Positions 28,560 through 54,003 of a stretch of 64,000 nucleotides of DNA are shown piece by piece. Where the stretch lies: the NCBI GenBank assembly GCA_963664705.1, contig OY761556.1:3264001-3328000 (forward strand), given 5' to 3'. A program made the translations under genes and the position numbers. The notes below the pieces were generated by a model that was given only the letters and a program-made list of their open reading frames with translations, was not told where the DNA came from and ran no database searches. This DNA is from Acidobacteriota bacterium. Its GTDB lineage: Bacteria; Acidobacteriota; UBA6911. Numbering within the stretch: position 1 is the first letter of the stretch; each line of letters begins with the position of its first letter.

Positions 28560-28641
28560 TTGTTTTGCCAGCCAAAACAAAACTACGACAGGCAATCCTT
28601 CTTTAAGTTTTGGCTTGCCAGCCGGAGCCTTTGGCATAGGC
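28560..28641 (-). repeat. tRNA-anchored palindromic repeat after the tRNA-Gly CCA
   Basis: GCCTATGCCAAAGGCTCCGGCTGGCAAGCC... begins at the first base after CCA; homologous to 42978-43001. Confidence 0.7.
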
Positions 28642-28717: not shown

Positions 28718-28748
28718 TTAATAAATGCTCCGCCTTTTTTGACGGACA

Positions 28749-28791
28749 GTTTTTCAGACTCCGGCTGGCCGGCCGGAGCTTCAAGAAAAAC
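28749..28791 (-). repeat. tRNA-anchored palindromic repeat after the tRNA-Tyr CCA
   Basis: GTTTTTCTTGAAGCTCCGGCCGGCCAGCCGGAGTCTGAAAAAC hairpin; core nearly identical to the post-tmRNA hairpin. Confidence 0.75.
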
Positions 28792-28879
28792 TGGTGGAGA
28801 GGGGAGGATTCGAACCTCCGTAGTACCTAAGTACGCTGGGTTTACAGCCCAGTGCCATTAACCGCTCGACCACCTCTCC
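28792..28879 (-). tRNA. tRNA-Tyr (GTA)
   Basis: GGAGAGG...CCTCTCC-ACCA; anticodon GTA; long variable arm. Confidence 0.96.
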
Positions 28880-29111
28880 AAAGATCTTCTCGCCTTCATT
28901 CTGCTTCGACAGGCTTGCCCGCCCAAGCTTCAGCAAAGGCTATTCAACATCTGCAAGGCATGGGAACTTTCTGCAATGCTTTGGTCATCCGCCAAAGTGG
29001 AGTCCAGGGAGCTTACAGGTGAGCCGGCCTAACCCTTCTGCCTCCGTCCGGTTAAGCCTCCGAACCGGGTTCCGCAAATCCCAAATCCAGCTTCTTTTAC
29101 GGCCCTTATAC

Positions 29112-41058: not shown

Positions 41059-42516
41059 TTACACCCCGGCTTCCCGAATATACAGGGGGAGATGGGCATC
41101 GGGAGGCTTTCGGCGAAACAGCCTTTTCAGGTTCAAAATACTGGACCATATGACCTGAGTATTCACGAGGCTTTCTCTGCCTAGTTGCCACATGATCCGC
41201 GGCCGGCCATAAAACCGGATATACGCGCGCCGATAGAGTTCAAACAGGCGCTTGTTGCTGAGATGATTCCGCTCAAAGGAAACCTGTTCGGTCGTGCAGG
41301 TATCCCAATTGATGGAATCCAGGGACAGCTTGTTCTCGCGGAGCGCCTCGTTGAACAGCGCAGTTCCGGGTACCGGTATCACAATACTGAAATTTGCCCG
41401 GCTCAACGGGAGCTCCACGGCGAGGTTGATCGTTTCCATGATCTCCGCCTCCGTTTCGTCCATGAAGCCAAGCATGAAGTATCCGATGATTTTCATCCGG
41501 CTGTTTGCGGCAACCATGCGGGCTTGCCTCCGAATGGTATCCACCGTGACTTTCTTCTGAATAACCTGCTGCATTCTTTCGCTGCCGGATTCAATCCCTA
41601 CGGCAATGCACTCGCACCCGGCCGTCTCCATAAGCCGGAGCAGTTCCGGATTCAATGAATCCAGCCGCAATCCCACCGGGCAGTCCCATTTCAGGTTGAA
41701 CTGGGCTTGAATAACACGCTCGCAGAATTCCGAGGCGTACCGTTGATCCAGGGTAAATTCGTCGTCGACGATGCTGAACCGTGTGATGTTGTAGCGTTTC
41801 TTCAGAAACGCGAGCTCTTCCATGACGCGGTCGAGGTTGCGATGACGCAGCTTCTTGCCGGACAGTCCGGGTGTATTGCAGTAAATGCATGGATACGGAC
41901 AGCCACGCGTTGTCAGGAGAGGATAGTATTCGTTATAGATAAAACCCGGGTACGTATCGGGCTTGATGAGCTCCCATGCTGGCATGCCAAAGGCATCCAA
42001 ATCCTCGGTAAAGCCGACCGGGTTGAGCATGATCTTCTGCTGCGCAACGCTGCGCCAGACCAATCCCGGGATATCCAGCAGGAAGCTCTCCGGGATTTCC
42101 CTCCCGTGCTTCCCGATGAGAGAAACCAGCTTCGGCAGCCCGATTTCCGCTTCGGACCTCCAGGCGAAATCGAGGTCGGGCATGGAGTTCAGGACAAACT
42201 CCGGAAGCGCGGATGGGTGAGGGCCGCCGACAAGCGTCACTGCCTTCGGGCAAACCTGCCGAACGATCTTCAGGTGATGCTTGACGTAGTTGTGATCCCG
42301 GCTGTAGCAGCGAAACCCAATGATGTCAAAGGAACTCGATTTCAGAAACTCCTTAAAGCCGGCGAAGTTCATTCCTTCCTTGGGGCAGTCCAGCAGGGTT
42401 ACCGCATGGCCATGCTTCTGCAGCGCTGTTCCCAAAATGATGATTCCCAGGTCGGGGGCAATCTGCAGATTGTTCCCTTCGCGAACCGGCAGTACGAGCA
42501 AAATGTTCAGACTCAT
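41059..42516 (-). CDS. Cobalamin-binding radical SAM protein (class B methyltransferase-like)
   Basis: B12-binding domain (LG..ILG, VGGPHPS), TRGCPYPCIYC, DDEFT, GIESGS. Confidence 0.88.
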   Translation of the reverse strand: MSLNILLVLPVREGNNLQIAPDLGIIILGTALQKHGHAVTLLDCPKEGMNFAGFKEFLKSSSFDIIGFRCYSRDHNYVKHHLKIVRQVCPKAVTLVGGPHPSALPEFVLNSMPDLDFAWRSEAEIGLPKLVSLIGKHGREIPESFLLDIPGLVWRSVAQQKIMLNPVGFTEDLDAFGMPAWELIKPDTYPGFIYNEYYPLLTTRGCPYPCIYCNTPGLSGKKLRHRNLDRVMEELAFLKKRYNITRFSIVDDEFTLDQRYASEFCERVIQAQFNLKWDCPVGLRLDSLNPELLRLMETAGCECIAVGIESGSERMQQVIQKKVTVDTIRRQARMVAANSRMKIIGYFMLGFMDETEAEIMETINLAVELPLSRANFSIVIPVPGTALFNEALRENKLSLDSINWDTCTTEQVSFERNHLSNKRLFELYRRAYIRFYGRPRIMWQLGRESLVNTQVIWSSILNLKRLFRRKPPDAHLPLYIREAGV

Positions 42517-42580
42517 GAGACGAGATTACCCCAGCCGAAGCGCGCGAGACAAATGAATTTGGCCAAAACGCGATCCTGCT

Positions 42581-42608
42581 TTGACTGGGTGCGTTGGAGC
42601 GTTATAAT
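42581..42608 (+). promoter_or_regulatory. Sigma70 promoter of ssrA
   Basis: TTGACT-N16-TATAAT, 19 nt upstream of the tmRNA. Confidence 0.75.
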
Positions 42609-42627
42609 TAATAGGTACATATCATGA

Positions 42628-42977
42628 GGGGGTGAACTGGATTCGACGGTAATCATGAGACAATTGAGGCATGTCCGAGTACCTGGATCTCGGAATAATC
42701 TCTAGGAAAACAATTAATCGCCAACGAACAGTTGCCGATGGCTGCCTAATAGGTGGCCCGTCACCCCATGCTCCGCCCATGGTGTGGGAGCGTGACGACC
42801 GCAGTGGGATGCGCCAGGTTCAAACTTGTAGACCTGGCTAAGATTACAAGTTAGCGAGGAAGCGTCCCTGTGAGTTCGTACGACTCGATCGCGAAATCTG
42901 TAACGGACTCAATAAACATGTAGTCTCAATTGATCGAAGGTTGTCGGACGCGGGTTCGATTCCCGCCACCTCCACCA
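42628..42977 (+). ncRNA. ssrA: tmRNA; tag reading frame 42720-42749 encodes ANEQLPMAA*
   Basis: 5' GGGGGTGAACTGGATTCGAC; 3' GACGCGGGTTCGATTCCCGCCACCTCCACCA; tag ends AA-TAA-TAG. Confidence 0.96.
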
Positions 42978-43051
42978 GCCTTCGCTAAAGCTCCGGCTGG
43001 CCAGCCGGAGTTTTAGCGAAGGCTGTCCGCCGAAGCGCCGCGAAGGCGGAC
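42978..43051 (+). repeat. Palindromic repeat anchored at the tmRNA CCA
   Basis: GCCTTCGCTAAAGCTCCGGCTGG-CCAGCCGGAGTTTTAGCGAAGGC near-perfect 46-nt hairpin, then a related small hairpin at 43025-43051. Confidence 0.85.
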
Positions 43052-43133
43052 CCTACCGCCAAACATGCCCTGTCGAAGACAACGCTCCTGCAAGTTTTAT
43101 TGGCTCAATTCTCCTCCACTTCATTAGTTAAGC

Positions 43134-43376
43134 ATGAAATATGTATACCTTCTGCAAAGCATCGCATGCCCGGGACAACGCTACGTCGGGCTGACTGAAA
43201 ACCTTTGCCGGCGCCTGGCCGCCCATAATAGCTGCCGTTCACGCCACACCTCAAAATATGCCCCTTGGCGTATTGTTGCAGCAATTCGCTTTATCGACGA
43301 TCAGCGCGCCGTCGCCTTCGAGCAGTATCTCAAGTCCGGATCCGGCCGCGCTTTTGCCAACAAGCATCTCTGGTAA
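43134..43376 (+). CDS. Stand-alone GIY-YIG nuclease (UPF0213/YhbQ-like), 80 aa
   Basis: YVYLLQS..YVGLT..RRLAAHN..HTSKY.PW..FEQYLKSGSG. Confidence 0.9.
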   Translation: MKYVYLLQSIACPGQRYVGLTENLCRRLAAHNSCRSRHTSKYAPWRIVAAIRFIDDQRAVAFEQYLKSGSGRAFANKHLW

Positions 43377-43383
43377 AAATTGT

Positions 43384-43419
43384 GGACACCCATGAATTGG
43401 GGATGAATCTTGGGTGTCC
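43384..43419. repeat. Short palindrome GGACACCCA...TGGGTGTCC
   Basis: 9-bp inverted repeat between the GIY-YIG stop and the Rhs remnant. Confidence 0.55.
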
Positions 43420-43450
43420 CGAATTTGGATTTTGATAGACGCAAAATCCT

Positions 43451-43492
43451 TCCGTCTGGATCCACGAGATTCACGGGATCATTTTTGACGTA
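43451..43492 (-). pseudogene. Rhs repeat-associated core C-terminal motif remnant
   Basis: YVKNDPVNLVDPDG fits the Y..NNP.N..DP.G Rhs core signature; no upstream Rhs body. Confidence 0.7.
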
Positions 43493-43546
43493 AATGGCAT
43501 GTGTCACGATTTATCCATCACTGAGAACCGCTATCTCTTGGGTCGG

Positions 43547-44155
43547 TCATTGCGGAGAATGCGGCAAACTAATGGTAACTTCCGTGGACGACAACATGGT
43601 CACCTGTTTTAAAAATATAGATTCAGTTCCCTTCATGATGGCCAGGACATATTCTCCAAATGGAAGTCCAGTCAGAATAAATTTTCCATCGATCACTTCA
43701 TTTTCAGCGTAGTATTTGTTGCCGGTGATTGGTAACAAGCGGACCCACAATTTGGCACTTTCAGGAGGAGATGGAACAATCCTTCCCTGACATACACTAA
43801 CCGGCCCATCAGATATTCTGGCTATCGAGAGAAAGATACGAAACGATATCTGCGGTTGCATAGCGCTCAAATGCTCTTCATGCCAGCTAAAACCAGTCGC
43901 TTTGATTCGTAGGATATAGTATCCGAATGGAACAATCGCGCTTAATAGGCCTTCTTTGATACTTATTTGCTTCGAATAATCTTTGCCAGACCCTTCTTCC
44001 ACCAATTCAGCGTTGAAATTCTTTATTGAGGCAGCTAAGGGATATCCCAGAACGATAGCTTGAATATGCGCCTCAGGAACATCCTTGGCTGTGGCTTGTC
44101 CAATTGTAATCTGCAGCAAGCAGATCCAAAGAGTCGCGCTCACTATTTTCGTCAT
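43547..44155 (-). CDS. Secreted low-GC protein with tandem beta-sandwich (carboxypeptidase-regulatory-like) domains; candidate immunity protein
   Basis: Signal peptide MTKIVSATLWICLLQ..ATA; two VPFGYY.L / LPFGEY.L motifs; TAATG coupling to the upstream fragment. Confidence 0.6.
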   Translation of the reverse strand: MTKIVSATLWICLLQITIGQATAKDVPEAHIQAIVLGYPLAASIKNFNAELVEEGSGKDYSKQISIKEGLLSAIVPFGYYILRIKATGFSWHEEHLSAMQPQISFRIFLSIARISDGPVSVCQGRIVPSPPESAKLWVRLLPITGNKYYAENEVIDGKFILTGLPFGEYVLAIMKGTESIFLKQVTMLSSTEVTISLPHSPQ

Positions 44156-44310
44156 TATTTGCCCTTTCCTTTCACGCAATAATTTTCAATCCAGTTTGAA
44201 ATGTTTATTGAGGGCCCATGGCTCAAGCGCAGGGTATCCTGGATTTGCTCATCGCCCAAGCCTCTTGATTCCAACCACTTGATTTCAGATTCCAGACAAT
44301 AGACCGGGGG
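44155..44310 (-). pseudogene. Orphan C-terminal fragment, possible toxin tip
   Basis: ...GLGDEQIQDTLRLSHGPSINISNWIENYCVKGKGK* with stop overlapping the next ATG; no credible start. Confidence 0.35.
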
Positions 44311-45191: not shown

Positions 45192-46262
45192 ATGGATCGT
45201 CCCAAAACACTCCCTTTTTCACTGCGATATACCCCGATGCTGGATGGCATCCGCGGTCTTGCCGTCGTCGCGGTCATGATCGTTCACATGAAGATTCCCT
45301 ATCTGCAGTGGGGATACCTGGGGGTGGATGTTTTCTTCACTCTGAGCGGCTTTCTGATCACGACGATTCTTGTGCAGGAGTGGGTGGAAACGGGAACCAT
45401 TAACTTTAGGAATTTCTATGCGCGCCGTGCACTGCGGCTCCTTCCGGCGTTGTCACTCCTGCTCATCGCAACCCTGCTGCCGCTGAACCCTGTGGCGCTG
45501 CCGCAGCGTCTCAAGGCTGCGGGAATCGCCCTCTTCTACAGTTCCAACTGGGTCCGCGCCCTGGCTCCCGACTTTAACCTCTCGGCCCTCGCCCACACGT
45601 GGTCGCTCTCTGTCGAAGAGCAGTTTTATTTCCTGTGGCCCATAGCCCTGGCCCTGTTGCTTCGCCGATGCTCTTCCGCGGGAAAACTGGTGTCCATTCT
45701 CGGTCTTGCCACGCTTGCATCCATTGCGTGCCGTGTGGTCCTTTGGAAGGCCGGCGCCGGTGCCATGCGCCTTTATAACGGCCTGGATACGCGCGCGGAT
45801 TCACTACTGGCAGGATGTCTGCTGAGTCTGCTGCTTTCCTTCGGAATACTCAAAAGCGGCATCAGGATCAGGCCGGTCGCAATCGGTGCGCTGGCTGTCA
45901 TTGCCATCCCCGGACTTCTGATGGTCTTCAGTTCAGAGTGGAACGACAGTTACATGTTCCTGGCGGGGTATACGTTGATGGCACTCGGCTCCGCCGCTTT
46001 GATTTTTCTGGCCATTAGCCCGGGTTCGCCTGCGCTGAAGGCGGTGCTTTCCTTCCGCCCGCTGGTATGGATTGGAAGTGTCTCCTACGGAGTCTACCTC
46101 TGGCATTACCCGATCTTTGCCTACTTCGAAGGACTTGGATGGCCGCGGCTGTTGAAGGTGGCGGGGATGTGGAGTACGGTTCTTGCCGTTGCAGCATTAT
46201 CGTTCTATGGGCTGGAGCGACCATTCCTTCGCATGAAACGGCGCTTTCAAAAACAGCCCTGA
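45192..46262 (+). CDS. Acyltransferase family 3 (OafA/OatA-like O-acyltransferase)
   Basis: LDGIRGLAV, GVDVFFTLSGFLIT, RRALRLLP, HTWSLSVEEQFY, SYGVYLWH. Confidence 0.93.
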   Translation: MDRPKTLPFSLRYTPMLDGIRGLAVVAVMIVHMKIPYLQWGYLGVDVFFTLSGFLITTILVQEWVETGTINFRNFYARRALRLLPALSLLLIATLLPLNPVALPQRLKAAGIALFYSSNWVRALAPDFNLSALAHTWSLSVEEQFYFLWPIALALLLRRCSSAGKLVSILGLATLASIACRVVLWKAGAGAMRLYNGLDTRADSLLAGCLLSLLLSFGILKSGIRIRPVAIGALAVIAIPGLLMVFSSEWNDSYMFLAGYTLMALGSAALIFLAISPGSPALKAVLSFRPLVWIGSVSYGVYLWHYPIFAYFEGLGWPRLLKVAGMWSTVLAVAALSFYGLERPFLRMKRRFQKQP

Positions 46263-53792: not shown

Positions 53793-54003
53793 GCCCTCGC
53801 TGCAAGCCGAAAAACCAATCATTTACACAAAAGAATAGCAGGAAATGGGGCCTTGGAACGGCTTTATGTCGCCATTCCCGGCTTCTGACGCCAACCCGCC
53901 GCTGTCGCCTGCTTCTTCCCGGAGGCGCAAGCCAAAAGCTGCAATGAATGCTTGCATCTTGCCTTGAAACTCCTGCATCCTTAATTTTTTGCGAGAGAAA
54001 AAC

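Follow-up and report, generated by a model that had tools for sequence, protein, structure and literature searches.

An 80-aa stand-alone GIY-YIG nuclease gene and a group of short hairpins were found directly behind the tmRNA gene of an Acidobacteriota bacterium. Comparison with homologous loci and with related genomes suggests, with a probability of about 0.6, that the hairpins and the gene form one inserted cassette that the nuclease mobilises at tRNA gene ends. An earlier note on the window (the whole stretch of 64,000 nucleotides that was analysed) had proposed the nuclease and its palindrome as an autonomous unit with gene-less derivatives; this proposal is supported by the linkage of the gene to tRNA ends with clean controls, by filled and empty sites and by target duplications.

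Structure of the cassette at the tmRNA locus

The features of the window are listed in Table 1. The palindrome reported earlier at the first base after the tmRNA CCA was indeed present: the tmRNA ended at 42977, and the 46-mer at 42978-43023 folded into a 21-bp stem beginning at +1. As read from the sequence, this stem was lengthened by 2 bp through pairing of the tRNA-type CA (42976-77) with TG (43024-25). The fold of 42978-43060 had a z score of -6.5, and equal stability was reached in 0 of 200 shuffles. A second hairpin, B2, came next, and the GIY-YIG frame that was said to follow encoded a protein matching PF01541 (E 4e-10) with conserved core residues. The leader block adjoined the ATG in the window, and the homologues sharing it had 13-80 extra nt before the start. 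Contigs from public runs spanned the tmRNA/cassette junction with 0 differences, and one of them (42959-43109) came from another sample; the junction is no assembly artefact. No excision joint was seen in the contigs that covered the locus, and a run of raw reads contained 0 reads from it. Contigs from RNA runs matched the tmRNA of other organisms only.

Table 1. Coordinates of the cassette, its host gene and the worn copies in the window.
Feature	Position	Strand	Remarks
sigma70-like promoter of tmRNA gene	42581..42608	+	11/12 consensus matches
tmRNA gene	42628..42977	+	encoded CCA end; host site of cassette (ARAGORN, Rfam)
hairpin A	42975..43000	-	6-bp stem, GGAG/CGAA internal loop, TTTA cap; CCA forms outer 3 bp
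long hairpin CA-[42978-43023]-TG	42976..43025	+	hairpin A plus inverted partner; the palindrome of the earlier note
hairpin B2	43026..43051	+	preceded by TG; 6-bp stem, GAAG/CGAA internal loop
probable decayed half of another B-type hairpin (CCCTGTCGAAG)	43068..43078	+	weak; resembles decayed arms near 28914 and 28590
leader block	43094..43133	+	common to 3-4 of 6 close homologues
80-aa stand-alone GIY-YIG nuclease gene	43134..43376	+	Slx1/HIGLE-like fold (predicted); similarity to relatives stops approximately at stop codon
decayed gene-less copy, +1 of tRNA-Gly(TCC)	28567..28641	-	far boundary uncertain
decayed gene-less copy, +1 of tRNA-Tyr	28727..28791	-	both outer arms altered yet pairing; CA/TG retained
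decayed copy upstream of tRNA-Tyr (unit 28889-28942)	28877..28953	-	flanked by worn 12-bp target duplication, 28943-28953 and 28877-28888
probable internally deleted remnant, +1 of tRNA-Glu(CTC)	53793..53809	+	GCCCTCGCT+GCAAGCCG; relative L319 has full unit after same tRNA-Glu end

Within 42500-43600, the tmRNA promoter was the only plus-strand promoter-like site; therefore, the nuclease gene would be transcribed by read-through from this promoter. Neither a second tmRNA end nor an integrase-sized ORF was found in the cassette of the window. The gene was the sole stand-alone GIY-YIG gene of the window genome, the other two PF01541 matches being located in frames of 447 and 607 aa.

Three neighbouring genes had no visible tie to the cassette: a B12-binding radical SAM gene (41059-42516, minus strand), a gene for a 210-aa protein with no Pfam match (43547-44179, minus strand) and an acyltransferase gene (45192-46262, plus strand). 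An unrelated repeat (GGACACCCATGAATT ... TGGGTGTCC; 43378-43425) began right after the nuclease stop codon; it had 15 matches with at most 1 mismatch in the window genome (G000), several of them less than 2 kb from tRNA genes.

Hairpin grammar

One asymmetric unit recurred in the leaders of the nuclease genes and consisted of a 6-bp stem, GWAG, a capping stem-loop, CGAA and the other side of the 6-bp stem. A purine internal loop of this kind could make tandem G.A pairs. A strict descriptor applied to 117 leaders recognised the unit on the top strand of 55 leaders and on the bottom strand of 75. TG directly preceded 44 of the 55 top-strand units; among the 75 bottom-strand units, the tRNA CCA was located inside the stem in 52, and the stem ended at +1 in 20. 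The same descriptor found no unit upstream of 31 Ssn-like genes. Pairing between CA and a TG was seen in 76 of 104 leaders. Moreover, the 3 nt after the CCA covaried with both partner arms (62/65 and 31/31, compared with at most 42 and 23 in shuffles), as did the non-GCC variants (18/21 and 9/9), all of these counts treating the loci without regard to kinship. By this grammar, the palindrome consists of a single asymmetric hairpin present twice, once on each strand. Such use of the motif on both strands argues for recognition at the DNA level and not in the transcript alone.

TGG was the last codon in 74 of 162 intact genes, including that of the window (43371-43376), so those cassettes span CCA to TGG. 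This terminal TGG may be a DNA-level end signal or merely a conserved Trp. A solo long hairpin of the form CCA...TGG with no tRNA nearby was observed in one relative (L336, G014:C12 near 23800), and its flanks were mutually inverted for 8 more bp. A loose GTCAT-type pattern matched 65 of 170 core loci (defined below) and was dropped.

Linkage of the nuclease family to tRNA and tmRNA ends

The closest homologues of the window protein were Acidobacteriota records. Among the best 80 of 101 GTDB loci, 59 had a full same-strand tRNA or tmRNA gene ending 78-357 nt upstream. A core set of 170 distinct loci, each with a score of 80 bits or more on the family profile, was assembled from the GTDB loci, a sample of 201 genomes of the phylum, five additional genomes, viral contigs and 80 of the 594 hits in metagenomes. 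A same-strand tRNA or tmRNA was present within 500 nt upstream in 109 of the 130 core loci having 500 nt of upstream DNA, and these loci belonged to many phyla. None of the 36 Ssn-like and none of the 10 UPF0213-like control genes from the same searches had such a neighbour; the control classes were set by the family tree and by a C-terminal motif taken as characteristic. The enrichment near tRNA ends and GIY-YIG genes suggested in the earlier note was thus found across the family. An opposite-strand tRNA was found upstream of 0 of the 170 core loci.

Fourteen RNA types served as sites among the core loci. CCA was encoded in 117 of the 121 tRNA or tmRNA genes at these loci, and the first motif was in register with a start at +1 in 102 of 121. 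Of the core loci without a whole upstream tRNA, many followed a 3' fragment of a tRNA or were close to the end of a contig; the remainder comprised a few loci with hairpins but no tRNA and two with neither. With strict patterns, hairpins were detected upstream of the single-domain nuclease gene at 84-95 of 160 loci, and downstream at just 7-9 of 163. Within one genus, the sites of close homologues were tmRNA or tRNA-Ser, and one genome carried three copies.

Filled and empty orthologous sites

Loci of relatives that had been chosen via the tmRNA alone (30 fetched, 29 called) were compared. Hairpin and gene were present in 4 of the 29 (one gene being cut after 22 codons), a 13-nt remnant in 1 and neither in 24; in four of these loci, the downstream DNA was shorter than 700 nt, and a single weak profile match (E 2e-4) was left uncounted. 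Both states were also found in the Thr-Tyr-Gly-Thr tRNA operon, where the Tyr-Gly spacer was filled in 7 of 16 genomes, the Gly-Thr spacer in 7 of 13 and the position upstream of Tyr in 2 of 16. The comparison of occupied and empty loci proposed in the earlier note therefore yielded both.

Across 30 genomes of the genus, the nuclease gene was present in 7 (9 copies). The hairpin-A pattern gave 66 matches in 16 of the 30 genomes, compared with 1 match for the control, and numbers per genome were low (0-13). Inspection of 61 distinct matches showed that 13 were inner arms of the same element, which left 48 units; these were sorted by pattern and by eye. Thirty-three of them were located at +1 of a tRNA or tmRNA 3' end (25 at whole genes, 8 at fragments or contig edges), a distribution far from the random one that would have spoken against the earlier proposal. 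Two units followed the gene, and 13 were elsewhere, 8 of the latter still being preceded by CCA. Solo copies were present in 7 of 22 genus genomes without the nuclease gene.

Junctions were read where a filled allele could be set against an empty one. Relative to the empty allele L354, the insert of L364 upstream of Tyr opened with its own CCA and was flanked by a 12-bp duplication, and the Gly-Thr insert of L364 was accompanied by 5-6 duplicated bp. At the L362 insert, 6-9 bp were repeated, in a comparison made with an allele other than an exact empty one. Target duplications of 5-12 bp were thus seen at three junctions, two of them from one genome. No target duplication was found at three +1 Gly inserts, and over all insertions the direct duplications ranged from 0 to 12 bp. 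Two Gly-Thr inserts joined at the natural CAGCC at the start of tRNA-Thr, which is microhomology to the left end of the unit. The left end was fixed (CCA-GCC...), whereas the right end varied: it could follow hairpin A or B2, or fall within the gene or at its stop codon. Between close homologues, similarity mostly ended within approximately 20 nt of the stop codon and continued in 3-4 of 17 pairs. The CCA belongs to the inserted unit.

The filled and empty sites, the target duplications and the unit's own CCA indicate inserted DNA rather than a required processing signal, and it is very probable that the cassette is inserted, tRNA-directed DNA. The filled/empty patterns could partly reflect old insertions followed by losses. 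Two simpler readings of the junctions were discarded: a 2-bp CA duplication at +1 sites, since CA also extends the B2 stem, and simple circle integration via a CCAG core, since the expected right-hand copy was missing at three Gly +1 insertions.

Some insertions were located at tRNA 5' ends or in T-loops. A B2 hairpin was observed in the T-loop of tRNA-Leu-like sequences uncalled by ARAGORN (L505, L509, L514, L515, L343), where GGTTC/AGGTC was nearly duplicated; L509 and L343, which were read completely, were 3' fragments. Such insertions suggest that targeting is wider than +1 and is filtered by selection.

Worn copies in the window genome

The unit that had been described at the first base after the CCA of tRNA-Gly did begin at +1 (28641), in worn form. 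For tRNA-Tyr, the earlier description held in part: a stem began at +1 (28791) but had drifted, and the conserved core began only at +10. The copy noted upstream of tRNA-Tyr (28940 downward) aligned with the intact copy that the relative L364 has at this site and was a worn version of the L364 insert. The echo reported after tRNA-Glu is plausibly a remnant left by internal deletion, given the full unit at the same place in a relative, although the window copy alone is weak evidence for this.

Just a few of the 53 tRNA/tmRNA calls of the window genome carried a unit at +1. The strict descriptor gave 4 matches in this genome, 2 of them at the tmRNA locus, and shuffles yielded 1-3; among the copies of the unit, only that at the tmRNA locus still fitted the descriptor. 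A genome-wide BLAST with the window units returned mainly chance 12-15-mers. Further worn copies were observed outside the window (G000:C1:803015-803115, 2229168, 5461482, 6173187 and 6658726), one at +1 of the tRNA-Ala of an rRNA operon and the others distant from called tRNAs, two of these being preceded by CCA. ARAGORN also called three tRNA-SeC and three tRNA-Cys genes in this genome (G000:C1:1625651, 3078215, 6559014).

Properties and distribution of the nuclease

The core residues Y5, Y17, G19, R27, H31 and E63 were kept in 57-59 of 59 alignment rows. At position 34, the window protein had C, and 54 of the 59 rows had G. Because of this unusual residue and the shortened leader, the window copy may be weakened. 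The predicted structure (pLDDT 93) had an Slx1 fold and was nearest to HIGLE and Slx1, with TM scores of 0.70-0.74 (7wme, 7cq2 and 4xm5: 0.70-0.73), and the best sequence match was 1zg2 (E 0.0014). All 32 disjoint pairs drawn from 148 gap-free genes had dN/dS values below 0.5 (median 0.18), the pairs being taken lowest-pN first and irrespective of relatedness. Judged by these ratios, the nuclease gene is under purifying selection, which also fits a host function. Internal stops occurred in at least 4 of the 170 core genes, and truncated or broken genes were encountered.

Strong matches (E<1e-23) were present in 10 of the 201 phylum genomes. Searches of 72,556 plasmids and 50,697 phages gave no match at E 1e-10 and 1e-8, and the viral contigs gave 1 core protein among 4 loci and 1 DNA match. 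Since plasmids and phages lacked matches and viral contigs held a single core match, there was no evident vehicle between phyla. The family tree was weakly resolved, and cross-phylum transfer was not inferred from it. NCBIfam and PADLOC gave no match for the window protein, and the ESM Atlas contained only generic GIY-YIG clusters.

Proposed mechanism and alternative explanations

In the mechanism that we propose, the nuclease would nick DNA at tRNA gene ends, and host repair would copy the cassette in. The protein would bind the G.A-loop hairpin in single-stranded DNA, by analogy with SsnA and NTS, and, like Slx1, would use its Slx1-type fold to nick branched, cloverleaf-like DNA of tRNA genes. 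The ...CCA 3' end set free by this nick might then pair with the complementary GGCTGG arm of the cassette and prime host DNA synthesis; this priming step is put forward tentatively. Copying would halt at variable points and so give rise to both full and gene-less copies, and the position at +1 would be due to selection that retains insertions leaving the tRNA whole. The GIY-YIG domain hydrolyses DNA, and to our knowledge no strand-transfer activity of this domain has been described; therefore, strand joining would have to fall to host repair. It is possible, but rather doubtful, that the cassette represents a new class of minimal mobile element of approximately 400 bp, without transposase, integrase or reverse transcriptase, in which an 80-aa Slx1-type nickase reads the structure of tRNA genes and the CCA end that the element carries directs target-primed copying to the 3' end of nearly any tRNA or tmRNA gene in many phyla.

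Alternatively, the nuclease could be a domesticated Ssn-like guard that cuts hairpin ssDNA and restricts recombination and phage or island integration at tRNA/tmRNA att sites, being kept by the host and spreading only secondarily. Such a role is suggested by SsnA, which cuts ssDNA by its hairpin and reduces transformation according to the available text of PMC11893778, by the purifying selection and exclusively chromosomal location of the gene, and by the many cassettes behind displaced tRNA 3' fragments, which are used integration sites. However, the same fragments are evidence that islands have integrated beside the cassette. Occupancy was patchy (4/29 tmRNA loci, 10/201 phylum genomes), genes were truncated or broken, PADLOC gave no match and the target duplications would be left unexplained. 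A guard is therefore considered unlikely.

The earlier note had also offered a 3'-trailer signal as an alternative; in this case, the hairpins would act in RNA processing, stability or termination, and the protein would be an RNA-processing nuclease or a co-transcribed passenger. The unit is always downstream and on the same strand, the tmRNA promoter is the only plus-strand promoter-like site at the locus, and pairing is maintained both between CA and TG in most leaders and in the changed arms of the window Tyr copy. Nevertheless, the unit is missing from most orthologous genes and its copies decay, so this reading is disfavoured. Furthermore, the conserved purine-loop motif is present in hairpin A as its reverse complement, for which a role in the transcript alone gives no need, and copies also occur at the 5' ends of tRNAs, within T-loops of tRNA fragments and at a distance from tRNAs. 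Terminator calling found no U-tract terminator at the window hairpins, and a search of the window and 20 homologous loci against Rfam gave only tRNA and tmRNA, apart from weak generic hairpin matches below threshold. SsnA, as reported in the available text of PMC11893778, is inactive on RNA. Taken together, these data make a trailer signal very improbable.

Movement of REP/MITE-like repeats by an unrelated enzyme in trans (Y1/RAYT or another transposase or recombinase), with the GIY-YIG gene captured once and hitchhiking, would fit the variable duplications, the solo copies in genomes without the gene and the one Y1 transposase of G000, but is highly unlikely given the absence of motifs beside that Y1 gene, the persistence of the gene-hairpin linkage over many phyla under purifying selection and the sister Ssn clade, which is a proven hairpin-specific nuclease in the available text of PMC11893778.

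Relation to known systems

The tRNA-end family, which we take to be cd10449/SLX1-like, appears from its sequences to be a clade separate from Ssn. Three GIY-YIG proteins located beside exact NTS motifs (from 80 loci) grouped with the Ssn-like set (SH-aLRT 93), and the window protein was in a separate group (SH-aLRT 94, or 97 in a larger tree); these were quick trees of few columns, in which the Ssn side was represented by the NTS-linked and Ssn-like proteins. With the Ssn-like profile, the window protein scored 30 bits, compared with 123-136 for the NTS-linked proteins. The published SRM pattern did not discriminate, being absent from the window locus and found at 2 of 170 core loci and at only 4 of 31 Ssn-like controls.

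By analogy, Ssn/NTS is the closest known system and the most alike in working. SsnA cuts ssDNA beside its NTS/SRM hairpin, lowers transformation and does not act on RNA, and the available text proposes an IS-like origin and reports hairpins on both sides of 42% of Ssn homologues (Chenal et al. 2025, PMC11893778). Supplementary file 5 of that article places Ssn as sister to sparsely characterised bacterial SLX1-like proteins. In both systems, to the extent that this article describes Ssn, a single-domain GIY-YIG gene of 80-100 aa is located beside short oriented hairpins that are also found solo, and a short tag precedes the stem on its 5' side (TG in the tRNA-end cassette, HGTC in the SRM). 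In contrast to Ssn-like proteins, the tRNA-end proteins have no C-terminal extension, and their hairpin has a GWAG/CGAA internal loop, is mostly upstream only and is low in copy number. The anchoring at tRNA ends also distinguishes the cassette: it was found for 0 of 36 Ssn-like genes, and the word "tRNA" is absent from the main text of PMC11893778.

Slx1/At-HIGLE and UPF0213 (BH0048) gave the best sequence and fold matches and share the catalytic residues. Unlike these proteins, the tRNA-end nuclease has no RING domain or partner, is patchy instead of universal and is tied to a DNA cassette. Prokaryotic Slx1-like proteins are described as minimal stand-alone domains, and no link to tRNA genes is mentioned in the available text of PMC1564403. 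The cassette also resembles REP/BIME/REPIN sequences with RAYT and GTAG/CGTC repeats, as presented in the accessible part of PMC3733652, in its short imperfect palindromes, inverted doublets and clustering by the enzyme gene. It differs from them in that the enzyme is GIY-YIG and not HUH, GTAG is within the stem and not at its foot, there are tens and not hundreds of copies, and tRNA ends are preferred; "GIY" does not occur in that article.

Several other assignments were rejected. A REPtron was dismissed because the linked gene is GIY-YIG and the single Y1 transposase gene of the window genome had no motifs in its flanks. The filled and empty orthologous sites are a trait of IS/MITE elements, but a classic IS or MITE does not agree with the variable right end, the few downstream hairpins (7-9/163) and duplications of 0, 5-6, 6-9 and 12 bp. 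An integrase-type tRNA-targeting element was rejected since the cassette contains no integrase gene and no att-type repeat of the tmRNA end, and a structured RNA of Rfam was rejected since no match reached the gathering score.

SegB of T-even phages is a larger modular enzyme. It offers a precedent for GIY-YIG enzymes at tRNA genes: its gene adjoins tRNA genes, it cuts tRNA-containing DNA, and it spreads, or is amplified, by recombination of the host or phage (PMC13096335, available text). SegB, however, is phage-borne, whereas the present gene is chromosomal without a phage match, and neither a hairpin cassette nor gene-less derivatives are described for SegB in that text.

A search confined to the open-access literature, subscription journals being outside it, found no description of a tRNA-end hairpin/nuclease cassette. 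A hairpin with a mini-nuclease is of a known kind (Ssn/NTS); the empty/filled junctions and the two-strand hairpin grammar are new. The cassette gives the bacterial Slx1-like nucleases of this widespread, as yet unnamed clade a concrete, testable role and pairs each protein with a candidate cognate DNA substrate. If insertion is driven by the nuclease, the cassette would be among the smallest autonomous elements known and would show how REP-like hairpins can multiply when there is no transposase, a question still open for CGTC/NTS-type repeats. An enzyme this small that locates tRNA gene ends of 14 types would also be worth considering as a tool for ssDNA cutting or safe-site insertion.

Sister SLX1-like genes (L121-L123, L131-L133, L136, L255, L256, L129 and L291) had a different layout, in which a tRNA (Leu, Asn, Val or Arg) was followed by the gene and then by an incomplete tRNA copy, one arm of which contained a palindrome; G056 contained five tandem copies of it. 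In G208, an identical small GIY-YIG gene (L128, L254) was observed inside two 23S rRNA genes, where it resembled an intervening sequence.
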